Source: Candidatus Magasanikbacteria bacterium GW2011_GWA2_56_11
Lineage (GTDB): Bacteria; Patescibacteriota; Patescibacteriia; Magasanikbacterales; UBA922
Direction of reading: 5' to 3'
NCBI GenBank assembly: GCA_001004885.1
Contig: LCRX01000015.1
Location: 1-54,914 of the forward strand
DNA: 54,914 bases
Of this stretch, positions 46,336-54,914 are shown piece by piece. The notes beneath the pieces are model-generated. The model saw only the letters and a list, made by a program, of their open reading frames with translations. It made no database searches and was not told the DNA's origin. Every line of letters begins with the position of its first letter. Positions within the stretch are counted from its first letter, which is position 1. A program made the translations under genes and the position numbers.

Positions 46336-46364
46336 TTGACCAAGGTGCTTACGCATGGTACAAT
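46336..46364 (+). promoter_or_regulatory. sigma70-type promoter for tRNA-Asn
   Basis: TTGACC-N17-TACAAT. Confidence 0.6.
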
Positions 46365-46403: not shown

Positions 46404-46955
46404 TCGGCGGTAGCTCAGTGGTAGAGCAGTTGGCTGTGACGAAATGTCCGCGCGGGGCCCAGGGCCCCGCAAAGACTCTATAGCAGCCCCGGGCCGAAAT
46501 GCCCGGGTGAAAACGGAGTGAACTGTTCCTCTGGCACATTATCGCCGGAGGAAGCGCCCGGACACTGGTAGTGTCCGGAACGCCAGGGAACCTAAGCCAC
46601 GGTAATAACCATGGTATGGTAATCTGCAGCCAAGCCGTGATTTCGTTCATGCGAATGGACACTCGTTACCGGCACGACAGCCAGCAGTTTATCTGCGGGC
46701 GGTGCGGCAACGAAGAATCACGGAAGGTTCAGAGACTATCCCGCATGGGAGTACCCCGACACCATACGGTGCTTGGGGGAAGCGCTCCGCACCCAAACGT
46801 TTTCCGAAATATCGGGATTATGACGTGGGTGAAGATATAGTCCGCGCTCTTCCGAATGAATAGTTCGGAGCCTGACGCCCTACGGGCGCCGGGCGGGAAA
46901 CCGGAGAGTACGTGTAACCAATTGGTCGTGGGTTCGAATCCCACCCGCCGAGCCA
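46404..46955 (+). tRNA. tRNA-Asn(GTT) split by an intron (exons 46404-46437 and 46915-46955)
   Basis: joined exons give acceptor tcggcgg/ccgccga, anticodon stem gttgg/ccaat, loop ctGTTaa, G73 and encoded CCA. Confidence 0.92.
46438..46914 (+). ncRNA. group I intron (IA-like), 477 nt, no internal ORF
   Basis: 5' exon ends in U pairing with IGS GCAGCC (46483-88); terminal G; P3 gggtg/caccc; R tcagagacta; S aagatatagtcc; P7 GACTA/TAGTC; two extra helices between P7 and P3'. Confidence 0.9.
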
Positions 46956-47330
46956 AGCAAGACGGAGCGTATTCAACGCTTCGTTTTTTGTATAATCATA
47001 GCCGTATTTTTGCGGTTCTAACCTTGCTAAATTTTTATTAAACCCGATCACCTTATCGTTGAGTGGCTGAAACCAAGGATATAGCGTAATTACAACATTT
47101 TTATCAAAAATTTCTCGGTTCGATCCTAACTCTACAACAATTTTTATTTTTACCTCTTTTCCAGCTTGTAAATAATCCCGATAAGCATAGACAGAAAATA
47201 CAAAAGTTTCTTTCGTTAGTTTTGTTTTATGCAATGGATCAATCTCAGTAATCTTTGTTTGTAAACTTTCGATCCCTAATATGATTTTCTTTAGATGTGT
47301 GGCTATAATCAAGATTAGATATACCCACAC
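46929..47330 (-). pseudogene. C-terminal remnant of a large serine recombinase/integrase reading into tRNA-Asn
   Basis: open minus frame: coiled coil, KIKIVVELGSN..IFDKNVVI, RLEPQK, ending WLGGWDSNP encoded antisense to the tRNA 3' half; no catalytic N-terminus. Confidence 0.6.
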
Positions 47331-47583
47331 ACCGAGCCTTGTTTCCACTTTCTTTGTTTCTAGCCCTGCCGGCAAGCAAACTTTTTGCGATTGAGCAAAA
47401 TCGCAAAAAGTTTTCTGCTTGCCGGTGCATAGGGCACTGATAACAAAGATAAATTCAGTCTAGCAAACCACTCTGCACAAAAGTTACCCTAAAAGTTTTC
47501 TGCAAAAATAATATTTTGCTTAACTAAGCCATTTTATAGCTAAAATTTAGGTGTAAAAATACTCATTTAGCGATTGACTTACC

Positions 47584-48390
47584 TTGTTTAAAAGAGTAAA
47601 CTTAAAGCAAGTTTATTGGCATTATCAAACAATTTTTGATATCAAAATAGCAGAAAATTATAAAAGTAATTCGCAAAAAATACGCATACTCACAGAGTCT
47701 TGGGTAGGCAAACAGATTTTTTGTCCAGCTTGCGGAGCGAATATCCAAAACTATGAAAATAATCGGCCCGTAGCCGACTTTTATTGTCCAAGATGTGCCG
47801 AGGATTATGAGCTGAAAAGTAAGAAAGACGGAATGGCTAAAAAAATTGTTGACGGAGCGTATAGCACAATGATTGAGCGGTTACAAAGTAGTAACAATCC
47901 TAATTTTTTCTTTTTAAACTATAATCCCGTAAAATTTGAGGTGTATAATTTTTTAGTTATTCCAAAGCACTTTTTTGTTCCTGAAATTATTGAAAAAAGA
48001 AAGCCACTATTAATCAACGCAAGGCGTGCTGGTTGGATTGGATGTAATATCTTATTGCAAAGTATACCTCAAAGCGGCAAAATATTTTATATCAAAAACG
48101 GTCAACCGGAAGAAAAAACTACTGTATTAAAAAATTGGCAGAAAACCTTATTTTTAAGGGAGCCAAACAAATTAGAACTAAAAGGGTGGATATTGGATGT
48201 AATGAACTGTATTGATAAGTTAGATAAAAAAGAATTTACCCTTGAAGATATTTATACTTTTGAAAGCACGCTGTACAAAAAACATCCCGACAATAAACAC
48301 ATAATGGATAAAATTCGTCAGCAATTACAATTTTTGCGAAATAAAGGGTACTTAGAATTTTTGGATAGAGGAAATTATCGCCTAAAATAA
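47584..48390 (+). CDS. dpnI: DpnI-family methyl-directed restriction endonuclease
   Basis: YKSNSQK.RILTE.WV, CP.CG, N.PVADFYC..C..DYELKS, GAY.TM..R, RAGWIGCNI, KIRQQLQ.LR..G; start codon uncertain. Confidence 0.88.
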   Translation: MFKRVNLKQVYWHYQTIFDIKIAENYKSNSQKIRILTESWVGKQIFCPACGANIQNYENNRPVADFYCPRCAEDYELKSKKDGMAKKIVDGAYSTMIERLQSSNNPNFFFLNYNPVKFEVYNFLVIPKHFFVPEIIEKRKPLLINARRAGWIGCNILLQSIPQSGKIFYIKNGQPEEKTTVLKNWQKTLFLREPNKLELKGWILDVMNCIDKLDKKEFTLEDIYTFESTLYKKHPDNKHIMDKIRQQLQFLRNKGYLEFLDRGNYRLK

Positions 48391-48391
48391 T

Positions 48392-48583
48392 ATGCAAATA
48401 AACTTAAGCCCGTTTTGGGCAAAAATGATTTTGAGATTAAACCCATTCCACCGATTGCTCGTTATGTGCAAGGGATATGGCGAGGATTATAAAAATTTTA
48501 CCGAGCTTGTCTGGCAGGATGATAAATATTTAGATTTTTACGATAAAAATAGCTATCCAAAATTTCAGCTGTGGCTATCTTAA
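48392..48583 (+). CDS. small hypothetical protein
   Basis: 63-aa ORF starting 1 nt after the DpnI stop. Confidence 0.55.
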   Translation: MQINLSPFWAKMILRLNPFHRLLVMCKGYGEDYKNFTELVWQDDKYLDFYDKNSYPKFQLWLS

Positions 48584-48621
48584 ATAGCCGAATACCATTG
48601 AAAATATGAACAAATAATTTT

Positions 48622-50685
48622 ATGATAATAGCAGATTATCCAATTGAAAGTGAAGGCGAAGACAAGTTACGTCGTACACCTCTAGCAAAGAAGGTTGCAG
48701 AACTTATTGCTAGCTTCAAAGGTAGAGAGAGTTTTGTAATAGGTATTGAAGGTGTTTGGGGCGCTGGAAAAACTTCATTTGTAAATCTTATTCTAAAGGA
48801 ATTAAAAAGTGACCAAAATCTCGTCTTCATTAACTTTAATCCCTGGAATTTTTCGGGGCAGAACGAGCTTATAACCGACTTTTTTTCTTCGTTAATTGTA
48901 AAAATAACTCCATTTGTTGCTGATAAGGATAGATTAAAAAAAGTAAAATCAATTGTATCTAAACTTACCAAAAAAAGTGAAGTGGCTTTTAGTCCTGAAA
49001 TAGCTGTTCTTGGCGGGCTAGTGAACCTCAAAGCCGCCGATTTGTTTAAATTAAAAGGCGACGAAAAAACGCTCGAAGAGGAACGAAAAGATATAAATGA
49101 ATTGTTTAATCAACTCGGTAGAAAAATTGTTATTGTCGTAGATGATATAGATCGTCTCGACACAGAAGAAACAAGGCTCATCATGAAACTTGTAAAAATG
49201 ACGGCAAATTTTCCTAACACTATTTTTGTTCTTGCCTATGACAGGGATCAGGTGGCACAAAAACTTGGCCAAGGAGGTATTGGTGAAGAATATCTAAAAA
49301 AGATTATTCAAGTCTCTTTTACGCTACCAGAGCCAGACCAGCAAGGTCTTCAAAAAATACTTTTTTCTGATTTAGACAAGACTATCAGCGATATTTATGG
49401 CATTGTAAAATTGGAAGGTAATGATGAAAAGAGGTGGAGTGATTTACTATATAAGGGATTTTTAAAACCTTTCAAAACAGTTAGAGATATTAAGAGGTAT
49501 ATAAGCTCTCTTCGTCTTAATTGGTCGATTGTAGCAAAGGAAGATGTAAATCAAATAGACTTTATGGCTATCGAAGCTATTCGTGTTTTCGCCCCTAGCT
49601 TATATTCTGGTATTGCCGCAAACCCTGCTTTGTTCACGGGCATACATGATCCTTCTGACTACGGGCGTAACAATAAAAAAAATTTACAGACAAAATTCGA
49701 GGAATTAATTGCTAAGCTTCATTCGGAAATTAGAGACCCAATGGAAGGTGCCTGCGAAGTGCTCTTTCCAAACCTCGATAATACTTACTATGCTGGCGAA
49801 CATGAACAAATATGGAAACGTGAAAGGCGTATATGCGTGGCCGAAAGATTCGGGTTCTATTTTCAACTCGGAATACCCGATGGAGCAATTTCAGAAGTAG
49901 AAGCAAATAATTTAGCGCAAAATTTTGATAATCGAGAAGCTTTTACAGAAAAAATTGTTGAACTAGCAAAAGACAAGAGACTGCGAGCGATGCTTAATAA
50001 AATACTGGACAGAGTAGATGATTTGTCTGAAGAACAAATAAAAGTTGTCATATCGGTTCTTTGGGATTTAGAAAAGGATATTATTGATGAGCGTAACGAA
50101 ATGTTCGATTTTAATGATGTAGAAACGCAAGTATCACGAATTACGTACCATTCAATAAAGCATCTTCCTGGTGATAAGCGATTTGAAATGATTAAATCTT
50201 TGTTACAAAACAGTGTGGTTTTCTACACCCCGACTCGATTTGTTGCGATGCTTATAGATCAACAAAGCAATTACCAGCGGAACGATGAACCGCTACTCAC
50301 ATTAGAAGAAACAGAAAAACTCAAAACTATCTGCTTGGCAAACATAAATAAATTAGTAACTGAAAATAAATTGCAGAATGAGACTAAGCTTGTTTTTGCT
50401 TTATATAGTTGGAAAGAATGGGAAAATGCTGATAAAGTAAAGGATTTTATAAAAAATCTGATTTCTACCAGAAAAGGGCTTTTAACATTTTTAAAAGGAT
50501 TTGTAGGAAAAGTTTTATCTTCAAATGGAAACTTTTACCAGATAGACAAGAAAGATATTGATCCCATATACCCTCTAACTGACATCGAGGCTTTGGTGCA
50601 GCAAATTACTGATGAAGAAATCAATCGCTTAGATGAAAAAGATAAAGAAGCGGTAATGCTTTTTAGAAATCCAAGAAGGTGGTAA
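48622..50685 (+). CDS. KAP-family P-loop NTPase
   Basis: D.L.R, IGIEGVWGAGKTS, FNPW, IVVDDIDRL, FVLAYD, EYL.KIIQ..F.LP, RD.KR. Confidence 0.92.
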   Translation: MIIADYPIESEGEDKLRRTPLAKKVAELIASFKGRESFVIGIEGVWGAGKTSFVNLILKELKSDQNLVFINFNPWNFSGQNELITDFFSSLIVKITPFVADKDRLKKVKSIVSKLTKKSEVAFSPEIAVLGGLVNLKAADLFKLKGDEKTLEEERKDINELFNQLGRKIVIVVDDIDRLDTEETRLIMKLVKMTANFPNTIFVLAYDRDQVAQKLGQGGIGEEYLKKIIQVSFTLPEPDQQGLQKILFSDLDKTISDIYGIVKLEGNDEKRWSDLLYKGFLKPFKTVRDIKRYISSLRLNWSIVAKEDVNQIDFMAIEAIRVFAPSLYSGIAANPALFTGIHDPSDYGRNNKKNLQTKFEELIAKLHSEIRDPMEGACEVLFPNLDNTYYAGEHEQIWKRERRICVAERFGFYFQLGIPDGAISEVEANNLAQNFDNREAFTEKIVELAKDKRLRAMLNKILDRVDDLSEEQIKVVISVLWDLEKDIIDERNEMFDFNDVETQVSRITYHSIKHLPGDKRFEMIKSLLQNSVVFYTPTRFVAMLIDQQSNYQRNDEPLLTLEETEKLKTICLANINKLVTENKLQNETKLVFALYSWKEWENADKVKDFIKNLISTRKGLLTFLKGFVGKVLSSNGNFYQIDKKDIDPIYPLTDIEALVQQITDEEINRLDEKDKEAVMLFRNPRRW

Positions 50686-51251
50686 TTATTCCTAACAGGA
50701 GTATGGTAATAAACCACAGTATCAAAAATTTTGAGTACGAGATAGTGCATCAGATATTGTTCAGCGAGCTTTGTTTTGATATTTGTCAATCTGTAAAGAT
50801 TATACCAGGACGTGGCAGTGATTTTCTTCCTTTTTTCTATAATTTAAATTTTATAAAGGGTATCATATCCCTGCACAGTTTGTTAGAATCCGGCAACAGC
50901 GATGAATTATCTGTTAAAAATTATTTTAAAGAGCACAAGTATAATTACCCTCGTGCCGATGTTGGTGATTTTAAAAAAGAAATAGAGTCTGTGGCTAAAG
51001 CTTTCAAGAAAGTTACTCCTCTATGTTTACGGCATAAAATCGGTGCGCATATTGATGGAGAATTCACGCATACAGATTTTACTTCCGCTTATATTATGCC
51101 AGAGTTAGTTCCAAAATATTGTGAGGTAGTTAGGCAATTAAAAAATGCTTTCTTTAAATTTTGTAATTATTCAAGAAATGATGACCCTTTTTCTAAAATA
51201 AAGGAACAGTCGAAGTTTGTTATTGATAATATTGTAAAAAGCACGTTCTAA
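50679..51251 (+). CDS. HEPN-like (AbiU2-like) protein
   Basis: helical 190 aa with LRHKIGAH (Rx5H); overlaps the KAP stop (alternative ATG 50703); terminator at 51283-51312. Confidence 0.55.
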   Translation: MVIIPNRSMVINHSIKNFEYEIVHQILFSELCFDICQSVKIIPGRGSDFLPFFYNLNFIKGIISLHSLLESGNSDELSVKNYFKEHKYNYPRADVGDFKKEIESVAKAFKKVTPLCLRHKIGAHIDGEFTHTDFTSAYIMPELVPKYCEVVRQLKNAFFKFCNYSRNDDPFSKIKEQSKFVIDNIVKSTF

Positions 51252-51476
51252 CTTCCTCTACGACACCGAGCAAAGTAGGATGAACGGACGCAAAACGTCC
51301 GTTTTTCTCTTTATTTACAGGCTAATGCCTCATTTTCATAATCTTTGAGCCTTATTCACTGTTTATAATTCCTCTGTATAAAGACCTTGCGTTTGCTTGT
51401 TTTGTGCACTATACTAGGTGTAGTGCACAAAGTTAGCTATTTTTGTGCATTAGGAATAGAATAATAGGCTTAAAAT

Positions 51477-52760
51477 ATGCTAAAAGACATAGTTTCGAAG
51501 CAAAAACTAAAGAAAGAGGAGCTTTTAAAATCCCAGTACGTGGATAGAACCAAAGAACCATTTGCCAAAAAATGGCTAGATTCTGCTTTGATAAAAGTCG
51601 TTCTTGGGCCCCGACGCGCAGGAAAATCGGTGTTTTCTCTCCTGCTTTTACGGGATCATGATTTTATGTACTTTGATTTTGACGACGAGGTATTGGCCGC
51701 GGAAGGTAGCCTATCAACAGCCGAATTAATGAAAGAACTACATAGCGCATATGGCCATATTAAAACAATTCTTTTTGATGAAATTCAAAATTTACCGGCT
51801 TGGGAGCTGTTTGTAAACCGTTTGCATCGCGAAGGCTACAATCTTGTGCTCACCGGCTCAAATGCCAGGTTGCTTTCGATGGAGTTGGCAACCCATCTTA
51901 CCGGCAGGCATATGCCGATAGAGTTGCTTCCGTTCGATTTTAAGGAATTTTTGAAAGGTAAAAAATTCGAAATAGATCCGGAATACAAATCCTTGCCTGA
52001 AAAACATGGTCAGCTTCTGAATTTGCTCGATCAGTATTTATCAAAAGGCGGTTTTCCGGAAGTTGTGGTTAGCAATCTTGATCCGGCAGATTACTTGGAA
52101 GTTCTTTTTGATTCTTTGCTCTTTAAGGATGTTGTAAAAAGGCACCGGGTTAAATTTTCAACGCAGATAAGCACGCTTGGATCACACCTAGTCAATAATT
52201 TTGCTTCGCTATACACGCTCAACAAACTGATGAAGACGCTTAATCTGAAAAGCGTGCATACCGTAGCTAAATACGCCTCATATTTGGAGGAGGCATATTT
52301 GATATTCTCACTCTCGCGATATTCTACAAAATCAAGGCAACGGATAAATTCGCCTAAAAAAGTATATGTTGTAGACAATGGCTTTGTAACTGCAAAGGCT
52401 ATTCAGCATTCGCCCGATAAAGGCAAGCTGACGGAAAATCTGGTTTTTACCGAACTGGTAAAACGAGGGCTTAAGCCAAACTTGGAATTATTCTATTACA
52501 AGACACGCAATGATCGCGAGGTAGATTTTGTCGTAAAAAAAGGACATCTGGTTACGGAACTGATACAGGCGTGTTATGAGTCTGTAAGCGCGGATGTTGA
52601 ACAGAGAGAAACAAAAGCATTATTCGAAGCGAGCGATGAATTGAAGGTAAAAAAACTTATCGTCCTAACATGGGATGAAAAGAGAACGGTAAAAAAGGAT
52701 GACGCGACCATAGAGTTTATTCCACTCTGGGAGTGGTTGCTGGAAAGACCCCAAGAATAA
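51477..52760 (+). CDS. AAA_14 ATPase with DUF4143 C-terminal domain
   Basis: GPRRAGKS, FDEIQ, LTGSNA, LTGR, GGFPE, KVYVVDNG, ENLV..EL, EVDF. Confidence 0.9.
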   Translation: MLKDIVSKQKLKKEELLKSQYVDRTKEPFAKKWLDSALIKVVLGPRRAGKSVFSLLLLRDHDFMYFDFDDEVLAAEGSLSTAELMKELHSAYGHIKTILFDEIQNLPAWELFVNRLHREGYNLVLTGSNARLLSMELATHLTGRHMPIELLPFDFKEFLKGKKFEIDPEYKSLPEKHGQLLNLLDQYLSKGGFPEVVVSNLDPADYLEVLFDSLLFKDVVKRHRVKFSTQISTLGSHLVNNFASLYTLNKLMKTLNLKSVHTVAKYASYLEEAYLIFSLSRYSTKSRQRINSPKKVYVVDNGFVTAKAIQHSPDKGKLTENLVFTELVKRGLKPNLELFYYKTRNDREVDFVVKKGHLVTELIQACYESVSADVEQRETKALFEASDELKVKKLIVLTWDEKRTVKKDDATIEFIPLWEWLLERPQE

Positions 52761-52764
52761 TTTT

Positions 52765-52956
52765 ATGCCGAAGGAAATCGCCGACAAAACCAAAGAAGAG
52801 ACTTACTACAAATGTACTCATTGCGGAGATGAAATTTTTTGGAATACCCATAAAAAATTCACTTACTGCAAGTGTAAGAAAATCTGGGTTGATGGTTGTG
52901 AGGACTACATTCGGATTGGTGGTAACGAGGAAGATCGTAAGGTGATAAAAAAATAA
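52765..52956 (+). CDS. small Cys-rich zinc-finger protein
   Basis: KCTHCGD.I........CKC..I.VDG...Y.RI.G. Confidence 0.7.
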   Translation: MPKEIADKTKEETYYKCTHCGDEIFWNTHKKFTYCKCKKIWVDGCEDYIRIGGNEEDRKVIKK

Positions 52957-52957
52957 T

Positions 52958-53560
52958 ATGGCCGTCTTAACACAGTCCGAATATTTAATAATTTCCAATA
53001 AGTTGAAAGTAAGTAAGCTTATAAATAAATCGCCACTTACAGAAGAAGGCGATTTTATTGATATTCTGATAGGCTTGCATATAATTCTTGAAGTCGGGCT
53101 TAACTCTTTCTTTCGCCAGGTCTCTCTGCTCTCTATTAAAAAGAATATTGATAGACTGGAAATAATGGACAATATTGATAAAGTAGGTTTTATAGATAAA
53201 ACGATTCTCTTTATTTATAACTCAAAATTTGATTTTGGTACTGAAATTGAGGAAGCCATTAAACACCATAAAATAATCGGCATATTAAGAAATTTTGCAG
53301 AGACAAGAAATAAGCTACTCCACGGCCATGCTATAGCGACATTTCACACGGAAGAAAATCGCATACCGAGACTATCCAGATCACGAAAAATTCTTAACCT
53401 AAATTTCTTGCAAGAGCAGATAACAAGGTTTAGAAAAATACTTGCCGGTATGCGATTTTACTTAGACCACCTAGATAGTCCTATTACGGAGTCCGGTAAA
53501 CAAGACCTTGCCGAGTCTTACCTGGATGATAGTTTTATACCAGAGGCGGTCGAATTATAA
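52958..53560 (+). CDS. HEPN-like protein
   Basis: H..LE N-terminal motif and RNKLLH (Rx4H); helical. Confidence 0.55.
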   Translation: MAVLTQSEYLIISNKLKVSKLINKSPLTEEGDFIDILIGLHIILEVGLNSFFRQVSLLSIKKNIDRLEIMDNIDKVGFIDKTILFIYNSKFDFGTEIEEAIKHHKIIGILRNFAETRNKLLHGHAIATFHTEENRIPRLSRSRKILNLNFLQEQITRFRKILAGMRFYLDHLDSPITESGKQDLAESYLDDSFIPEAVEL

Positions 53561-53643
53561 AACTTTTTAGTAAGTTCGAGGCACATCACTTAATTGCTGG
53601 CGGCATTATCAAGGGCAAAAAAATTATTAAAAGTAATAATTTC

Positions 53644-54384
53644 ATGATACCATCGTTTGACTTAGACAAAATTAAATTCGCCACAGATCAGCCGACTTAC
53701 CAGAAAGCGGTTGTTTTGTACGAGTCAGGCAAAGTTACGCGATTTGAGACGGGAATCGGTTCTTATTCGGCCACAGTCCTTGGAACTCGCCCTTACCGTG
53801 TTTCAATCGAGGCGCGACGTTTCGGTTTGGGAAATTGTGAATGCTATCTCGGCCAGCAAGACACGCTTTGCAAACATATGGTCGCGGTATCAATTTATGC
53901 CGTAATGGGTGGTAAAAAACTATCGCCAGAAGAGAAAAAACAGGTAAGCAGCCCCATTTGCAGCGGTAAACTCGGAGAATTGGGCAAAAATGAATTAGCT
54001 CAAACAAAAAAGGCCATAACTTCGGCCATAGCTTACATAAAACCTTACAACGTGCCGTCTCGTCTCTGGTTTTCTTATCAAAATTCACTCGATGAGGGTT
54101 GCGCGCGACTGGCAGAATTGGCCTCCCGTCTGCCCGTAAGCCAGCAAACCGCCATGCTATTGGTTGATTTGCTTTTACGCTTGGATAAAAAGTTGTGTAC
54201 TGGCGGCGTTGATGATTCGAATGGCACGGTTGGCGGATTCATCGAGGATGTCGTTTTAATGCTTCAGGAATACGCAAAACTTGATCAAAAGTGCATTAAG
54301 GCGTTTGAAAAGTTAGGCGGTAAAGAGACTTGTTTCGGTTGGGAGGAGCCTTTGGTGGCAATCGTTGATGAATGCTGGAGCTAA
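53644..54384 (+). CDS. SWIM zinc-finger protein
   Basis: Y.V.I......GNCEC......CKHMVAV (CxC...CxH). Confidence 0.8.
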   Translation: MIPSFDLDKIKFATDQPTYQKAVVLYESGKVTRFETGIGSYSATVLGTRPYRVSIEARRFGLGNCECYLGQQDTLCKHMVAVSIYAVMGGKKLSPEEKKQVSSPICSGKLGELGKNELAQTKKAITSAIAYIKPYNVPSRLWFSYQNSLDEGCARLAELASRLPVSQQTAMLLVDLLLRLDKKLCTGGVDDSNGTVGGFIEDVVLMLQEYAKLDQKCIKAFEKLGGKETCFGWEEPLVAIVDECWS

Positions 54385-54469
54385 AACAATAGCGAGTCGT
54401 GGTGTTGGAGTTATTCTCCCGGCCAAGAAAATTTGGAATATAAACAAAAGTGAGCTAAAATACAACTGT

Positions 54470-54914
54470 ATGAAAAGACCCCTAAGCACAACTTTCATTT
54501 TCGGATCACTGTTCATTGCCGGTTCGGCGAACGCCCAAATGATGGGTAATTTTTCCAATACTCAAGTCGATTGGAACGAAGTTGTCGAGCATACAGCGCG
54601 CGAAGAACAGGAAGGCAAGGAACTCTGGGAAAAACTGCAAACTAAAGAGGTTGCTTGCGAGAATTTGAGCGACAAACAGCACGGAATGCTCGGCGAATAT
54701 TTTATGGGGCAAATGGCTGGCGAGTCCCACGCCGCCATGAACGCCATGATGCTCCAGGCACATGGTGAAAACGGCGAAGAACAAATTCACATCGTAATGG
54801 GCAAGCGTCTTTCCGGTTGCGATACATCGGCGGCGTTTCCGGCGAACAGCCTCGGCTGGATGCCGATGATGAACATGATGTGGGGAGGGTGGTCGTCTCC
54901 TTTTGACAGTAATA
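54470..54914 (+). CDS. exported Met/His-rich protein (partial, runs off the window)
   Basis: ATG 54470: signal-like MKRPLSTTFIFGSLFIAGSANAQ, then HTAREEQEGKELW..L....C, GEYFMG.M.G..H..MN.MM, MG.R.SGC. Confidence 0.7.
   Translation, partial: MKRPLSTTFIFGSLFIAGSANAQMMGNFSNTQVDWNEVVEHTAREEQEGKELWEKLQTKEVACENLSDKQHGMLGEYFMGQMAGESHAAMNAMMLQAHGENGEEQIHIVMGKRLSGCDTSAAFPANSLGWMPMMNMMWGGWSSPFDSN

Follow-up and report, generated by a model that had tools for sequence, protein, structure and literature searches.

A tRNA-Asn(GUU) gene at positions 46404-46955 of the window is interrupted by a 477-nt insert (46438-46914, forward strand) that, on comparison with homologues at the same site, is very probably a well-preserved, ORF-less, IA-like group I intron whose splicing would restore the tRNA. 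The window is the whole stretch of 54,914 nt that was analysed, and it makes up the whole of contig C15 (54.9 kb), which belongs to a genome of 1.25 Mb that is 99% complete and has about 55% GC. Patescibacteria/CPR is the label of both its relatives and the genomes that carry the intron family. An earlier note on this DNA had proposed a group I intron at position 35/36 of the tRNA; in silico splicing, a match to the Rfam group I model and covariation in 17 homologues all agree with that proposal. The intron belongs to a large Patescibacteria/CPR family that occupies one site and whose setting, Asn.4Ug, has already been catalogued.

The split gene and its splice junction

The 5' exon (46404-46437, forward strand) provides the 5' strand of the acceptor stem, the D-arm, the 5' strand of the anticodon stem and the loop bases C32, U33, G34 and U35. 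The 3' exon (46915-46955, same strand) continues with U36, A37 and A38 and carries the 3' strand of the anticodon stem, the variable loop, the T-arm, the 3' strand of the acceptor stem, G73 and CCA. When the exons are joined, ARAGORN recognises a tRNA-Asn(GUU) of 75 nt with the pair U1-A72, G73 and an encoded CCA. The earlier note had held that removal of 46438-46914 yields a canonical tRNA-Asn with CCA, and these coordinates are exact; the product spliced in silico does read CUGUUAA in the anticodon loop. The insert lies between U35 and U36, starts with G and ends with G46914, giving the junction CUGU/g...g/UAA, in which slashes mark the splice sites. Compared with those of relatives, the exons show 98-100% identity, and no tRNA feature is damaged; the 5' exon is 100% identical to its counterparts in four of them (G022, G002, G020 and G003).

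The suspicion that standard tRNA finders may miss this gene was justified. Neither default ARAGORN nor the Rfam tRNA model makes a call for a tRNA-Asn at 46404-46955. With introns allowed, ARAGORN finds the gene, but calls it tRNA-Thr(UGU) with a 477-nt intron. Such a product would arise from a splice site two bases upstream (CU/...G/UGUAA), where a U likewise precedes the intron and a G ends it. The probability of this alternative is close to nil. The wobble is set at U35 by pairing of the internal guide GCAGCC with GGCUGU, the intron holds nothing complementary to ...UUGGCU, and the CGU strand of P9.0 abuts G46914. U1-A72 and G73 are identity elements for asparagine, and here they match the tRNA-Asn genes of relatives. 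CUGUUAA is the loop read in orthologues that have the same exons but no intron, and the genome already has tRNA-Thr genes with the anticodons UGU, GGU and CGU. The tRNA-Thr(UGU) reading was rejected on these grounds. An intron site between positions 35 and 36 of tRNA-Asn(GUU) is thus supported by the pairing and by the comparison of genes.

Fold, group I identity and subgroup

All elements of the fold lie on the forward strand. P1 (46432-46488) pairs the exon bases GGCUGU (46432-46437) with the internal guide GCAGCC (46483-46488), and the wobble U35.G46483 stands at the 5' splice site. This U.G is invariant in 17/17 homologues, and GCUGU/GCAGC is conserved throughout the 17 aligned introns, except for the outermost pair in one. 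The P1 loop (46438-46482) is 45 nt long, contains a GC-rich hairpin at 46446-46476, as had been noticed earlier, and folds at -20.8 kcal/mol. It is followed by the P2 hairpin (CCCGGGC/GCCCGGG, 46488-46507), in which each of the seven pairs shows changes on both sides within the family. The 5' strand of P3 (CGGAGUG, 46514-46520) pairs with its 3' strand (CGCUCCG, 46783-46789).

The P4-P5 domain extends from 46524 to 46628. In it, P4 is formed by UG (46524-46525) and CAGG (46584-46587) with UCUGCA (46623-46628), and the P5/P5a hairpin occupies 46590-46620. Between the two parts of the P4 5' strand lies an insertion of 58 nt with two hairpins (46526-46583), which folds at -35.4 kcal/mol. Of about 87 family members, about 15 have an insertion in the P4 bulge, which often begins with UUCC or UCCC. 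P6 (GCC/GGU) carries a long branched P6a extension, the whole measuring 100 nt (46629-46728) and folding as a domain at -40.3 kcal/mol.

The 5' strand of P7, GAGACUA with a bulged A (46732-46738), pairs with UAGUCC (46838-46843) and falls where the Rfam match is aligned best. P7 is the putative guanosine-binding helix and forms the core pseudoknot with P3. Two further helices, P7.1 (UCCC/GGGA, 46739-46750; two of four pairs change on both sides) and P7.2 (46754-46778; four of four), are placed between P7 and the 3' strand of P3. The P8 hairpin (CACCC...GGGUG with an inner stem, 46790-46831) folds at -16.7 kcal/mol, with changes on both sides in four of its five pairs. J8/7 (AAGAUA) and the 3' strand of P7 follow at 46832-46843, and their motif GAUAUAGUCC hardly varies among family members. 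P9.0 pairs GCG (46844-46846) with CGU (46911-46913) directly before the terminal omega-G (46914), which it positions; among relatives it covaries as ACG/CGU, AGU/ACU and AUC/GAU. The strands of P9.0 enclose a three-way P9 domain (46847-46910; -30.4 kcal/mol). P10 amounts to at most 2 bp. The U.G pair of P1, omega-G, P3, P7 and the P7.1/P7.2-like helices, all of which the earlier note had listed, are present. The core helices are fully paired except for a single U.U at the inner end of P5, and the core strings that do not vary within the family, AAGGUUCAGAGACUAUC and AUAGUCC, are preserved.

The fold was assessed on an alignment, A2, made with MAFFT from 17 homologous introns and 12 nt of each exon. 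The hand-drawn structure comprises P1, P2, P3, P4, P5, P6, P6a, P7, P7.1, P7.2, P8, P9.0 and P9, with 65 pairs in total. As controls, the 3' partners were slid by 1-3 columns, and 500 shuffles were made. In the drawn structure 96.3% of cells are paired, against 38.6-47.8% for slid partners. Changes on both sides affect 35 pairs (11-21 when slid) and 183 cells (17-45 when slid), and the covariation score is 0.487 compared with 0.07-0.14. None of the 500 shuffles reached any of the observed values. Covariation is heavy in P2, P3, P6a, P7.2, P8 and P9; P3 has 100% of its cells paired with four of seven pairs changed on both sides, and all five pairs of P6a change on both sides. P6 and P7 are invariant in the 17 introns, and support for these two helices consists of conservation only.

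The Rfam group I model RF00028 (Intron_gpI), which the earlier note had suggested running, gives a match of 41.9 bits (E = 3e-9) over 46523-46863, with the model aligned end to end. This score is under the gathering score of 50, because the model misaligns the large insertions: its 5'-most stem falls on the first hairpin of the insertion at the P4 bulge, and its P3 aligns poorly. Two other introns of the same genome pass the threshold, with 69.4 and 50.7 bits. For group I identity, the comparative evidence is a stronger argument than the Rfam score.

The low score might be taken to mean that the insert is no ribozyme at all, and that a transposon or MITE, an assembly chimera or a protein-spliced intron came to lie in the tRNA gene by chance. 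This is barely conceivable given the full-length Rfam alignment at E = 3e-9 and the covariation seen in 13 helices, among them the P3/P7 pseudoknot. The 35/36 site is also occupied in at least 83 independently assembled genomes, and no part of the insert is repeated elsewhere in the genome, where only chance 13-15-mers match. The comparative data exclude a non-ribozyme insertion. The idea that the GC-rich insertions within the intron are copies of a mobile repeat was rejected as well, as they have no genome-wide match beyond such chance words.

The extra helices P7.1/P7.2 are a feature of subgroup IA in the Michel-Westhof classes and are absent from IC3. In the Asn intron two covarying helices, supported by double changes, lie between the 5' strand of P7 and the 3' strand of P3, where the compact IC3 core has no P7.1/P7.2. 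The helix topology would therefore make this intron IA-like, unlike the classical bacterial tRNA introns, which belong to subgroup IC3 (Williams 2020). Those introns interrupt tRNA-Leu(UAA) and tRNA-fMet in cyanobacteria, tRNA-Ile(CAU) in Azoarcus and tRNA-Arg(CCU) in alpha-proteobacteria. The Asn intron shares with them a site in the anticodon loop of a bacterial tRNA and a P1 formed from the anticodon stem-loop, and its core strings GUUCAGAGACUA and AAGAUAUAGUC are similar to theirs, as in the Rfam consensus. It differs in its host tRNA, in its position at 35/36 inside the anticodon, in the additional P7.1/P7.2 and in the optional P4-bulge insertions. A further likeness is found in introns of phage DNA polymerase genes (Escherichia phages KBNP1711, Bas89 and LAMP), in which a stretch of 37 nt is 92% identical. 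This stretch covers J6/7, P7 and P7.1 (query 315-351), which fits an IA-like core. The phage introns, however, reside in a protein-coding gene, and outside the 37 nt no similarity is detectable.

By analogy with standard group I chemistry, the intron would fold into its P3-P9 core, and the internal guide GCAGCC would pair with the exon end GGCUGU, placing U35 in the U.G wobble. Free guanosine bound at P7 would then attack after U35. Finally, omega-G46914, set by P9.0, would enter the same binding site, and the exons would be joined to give the loop CUGUUAA.

A patescibacterial intron family and its mobility

A BLAST search with the split gene detected an intron at exactly CUGU/UAA in 18 of 40 relatives, with lengths of 241-552 nt. 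The interrupted tRNA-Asn occurs in 13/24 genomes of the same family and in 5/16 from other families of the order. In other relatives the tRNA-Asn gene is uninterrupted, and these intronless orthologues have near-identical exons reading CUGUUAA. One of them, in genome G009, shares the ftsX-tRNA-Gln-tRNA-Asn synteny. The interrupted gene lies at this ftsX-tRNA-Gln-tRNA-Asn position, which is the ancestral one, and is the syntenic orthologue.

A wider scan for exact matches to the invariant 17-mer AAGGTTCAGAGACTATC, with one genome per species, found this core motif in at least 120 species, mostly labelled as Patescibacteria groups. Among the matches listed, the record labels are mostly Paceibacterota, Parcubacteria, Saccharibacteria, Magasanikbacteria, Kaiserbacteria and similar. 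Eighty loci were read among the matches listed, and 65 of them are tRNA-Asn(GUU) genes split at 35/36. Single cases of tRNA-Tyr(GUA), tRNA-His(GUG) and tRNA-Asp(GUC), all split after CUGU, were found among these 80; three loci lack a resolved identity and nine lack a tRNA call.

At the three exceptional loci (L047 for Tyr, L058 for His and L094 for Asp), the family intron again sits at 35/36, and these are the other three tRNAs with an anticodon loop starting with CUGU. The distribution would fit a choice of target through the GCAG guide. A separate observation concerns the Asn intron at locus L011 (genome G028, contig C20), the core of which (GGUGUAGAGACUAGCGAGUGAGUCCCAACAAUAAUCUCGC...) resembles that of the tRNA-Phe intron of the genome studied here (G000), and not the main Asn family. 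It suggests either that two intron lineages use the one 35/36 site or that an intron has moved between tRNA genes.

The statement in the earlier note that 35/36 introns in Asn/Asp tRNAs had been reported for Patescibacteria is essentially right, as shown by a catalogued example and by the motif scan. Williams (2020; bioRxiv 10.1101/2020.01.27.920355) extended the settings of bacterial tRNA introns from four to 21, and the seed alignment of that study contains Pam37.Asn.4Ug and Mba55.Phe.2Ug. The Asn.4Ug setting agrees with the window copy in having a tRNA-Asn host, a site after the fourth base of the anticodon loop (35/36), U at -1 and G at omega. In the seed row of Pam37.Asn.4Ug, an internal guide ...agcagcc is visible, like that of the window copy, which itself is apparently absent from the 2017 data set of that author. 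The text of Williams (2020) gives no structure description or biology for the Asn.4Ug setting, and no such description was found in the literature searched on tRNA group I introns of Patescibacteria/CPR. Lui et al. (2021; PMC8172020) mention briefly that group I introns occur in tRNAs of CPR, and the paper of Tsurumaki (2024) on rRNA introns does not mention tRNA. The window intron is in this respect ordinary, an addition to a very common kind with a setting catalogued in 2020.

Some members of the family encode a protein. Two relatives (loci L027 and L008) have an intact ORF of 102 aa in the P1 loop with an HNH signature (...EFHHLDP...CANCHREIH), which scores 21.1 bits with Pfam HNH against a cut-off of 21.4. 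The same ORF is frameshifted at L022 and truncated at L011. A tblastn search with the HNH protein of these relatives found nothing significant in the window intron or in the whole genome, in agreement with the earlier claim that the insert has no homing-endonuclease ORF. In the wider sample, introns without an ORF measure 212-437 nt and those with one 524-723 nt, a pattern that fits the well-known cycle in which an endonuclease is gained, decays and is lost. At 477 nt, the window intron is large for an ORF-less member compared with the 212-437 nt of the others sampled, owing to structured insertions. The family would spread by means of an HNH homing endonuclease that some members carry in the P1 loop, and the window copy may have lost this gene or never had it, and carries structured insertions in the P1 loop, P4 bulge, P6 and P9.

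A comparable case is the tRNA-fMet intron of Synechocystis PCC 6803, which reportedly encodes the homing endonuclease I-Ssp6803I. Both are tRNA intron families made mobile by an endonuclease aimed at the anticodon region, and both are sporadically present or absent among relatives. The endonuclease of the Asn family differs from the Synechocystis case in being of HNH type and located in the P1 loop, and the window copy has none.

Genomic setting and a second tRNA-Asn gene

A promoter-like site lies at 46336-46364 on the forward strand (TTGACC-17 nt-TACAAT, the second hexamer being preceded by TG), about 40 nt ahead of the 5' end of the tRNA. It agrees with the consensus at 10/12 positions, which is a consensus match only, and shuffled sequence gives 0.8 such sites per region. 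Downstream, a terminator-like hairpin (GGAGCG-UAUUCAA-CGCUUC, then G and six U; 46964-46989, forward strand) was recognised by direct reading of the sequence and is not listed by the consensus scan. From the promoter-like site to the hairpin and U-run, the tRNA-Asn gene may be transcribed as its own unit.

Directly after this unit, the GC content falls from 0.56 to 0.36 and stays low to the contig end, at about 33% in places. The AT-rich, foreign-looking region at 46990-54914 has about 33-44% GC and runs to the end of the contig. It encodes a DpnI-like methyl-directed endonuclease (47584-48390), a KAP-family NTPase (48622-50685), an AAA_14/DUF4143 ATPase (51477-52760) and a SWIM zinc-finger protein (53644-54384), and it looks like a defence-type island inserted beside a tRNA gene. 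No integrase was detected in the part of the island that lies on the contig (46990-54914). The island runs off the contig, and a second copy of the tRNA 3' end, which would mark its far boundary, is absent from the assembly. A 185-aa ORF (46818-47375, reverse strand) runs antisense into the 3' half of the tRNA and has no Pfam family at E <= 0.01.

The earlier note implied that the split gene might be the only tRNA-Asn of the genome, which is not the case. An uninterrupted but divergent tRNA-Asn(GUU), referred to as type B, is located at C10:36415-36488 (reverse strand, locus L028). Its D-arm reads UAGUUGAGCUGGUACAAC, its anticodon stem is CCGCG, and it has no encoded CCA. Type B is conserved in many relatives and uninterrupted in every copy examined, whereas the type A gene is often interrupted in this lineage, so that a genome of about 1 Mb holds two distinct tRNA-Asn(GUU) genes. 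The genome also has both asnS (AsnRS) and gatB (GatB). In two relatives, G028 and G029 (97% and 99% complete), a pattern scan did not find an uninterrupted tRNA-Asn(GUU).

The remaining tRNA genes include the only copy of tRNA-Phe(GAA), which is split by a 240-nt group I intron (C10:30606-30918, L001:1453-1765, reverse strand; 69.4 bits with RF00028). Its likely junction, CU/G...G/GAAAA between 33 and 34, is the Phe.2Ug setting of Williams (2020). Default ARAGORN makes no call for this split tRNA-Phe(GAA), so that the genome appears to be without tRNA-Phe. A third group I intron is found inside the 16S rRNA gene (C9:17256-17542, locus L002, forward strand; 50.7 bits), and an ORF apparently starts just downstream of it. 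Group I introns in rRNA are typical of CPR bacteria. The tRNA set further contains two tRNA-Ile(UAU) genes (C5:25259-25333 and C8:1999-2074) and only two tRNAs with the anticodon CAU, which suggests that AUA is read by tRNA-Ile(UAU) and not by a lysidine-modified tRNA.

The existence of type B bears on whether the intron is active. With a second, uninterrupted tRNA-Asn(GUU), selection on the splicing of the split gene could be relaxed. The intron might then be real but inactive or poorly active in this copy, the split gene being a decaying pseudogene and type B on C10 decoding all asparagine codons. The conservation of type B in many relatives is compatible with such a scenario. The intron is also 236 nt longer than the minimal relative, folding could be slowed or impaired by its four large insertions and above all by the one within P4, and in a copy lacking an endonuclease no homing would maintain it. 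Such inactivity, the chief remaining doubt, is nevertheless improbable. The exons remain 98-100% identical to those of relatives with the tRNA features intact, and the core helices and invariant core motifs are all preserved. Insertions in the P4 bulge must be tolerated, given their presence in about 15 family members, and the insertions of the window copy are stably folded hairpins, unlike the product of random decay. The promoter-like site and the terminator-like hairpin have also been kept. Furthermore, group I splicing must work in this cell, because a group I intron also interrupts its sole tRNA-Phe(GAA) gene. An even less probable idea is that the large insertions of this endonuclease-free copy (the hairpin in the P1 loop, the two hairpins at the P4 bulge and the branched extensions of P6 and P9) are not neutral but make splicing conditional and thereby tune the supply of one of the two tRNA-Asn(GUU). 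A well-preserved intron that splices therefore remains the preferred reading.

Taken alone, the window intron does not change what is known of group I introns. For annotation, its consequence is that a split tRNA-Asn is invisible to default finders and miscalled as tRNA-Thr once introns are allowed, and because of these failures patescibacterial genomes seem to be without tRNA-Asn, and here without tRNA-Phe too. As a well-preserved member, the intron adds to a family that is very common in ultra-small bacteria but has barely been described. This family displays endonuclease gain, decay and loss, presence and absence at an orthologous locus, and an occasional use of the CUGU site in Asp, His and Tyr tRNAs.
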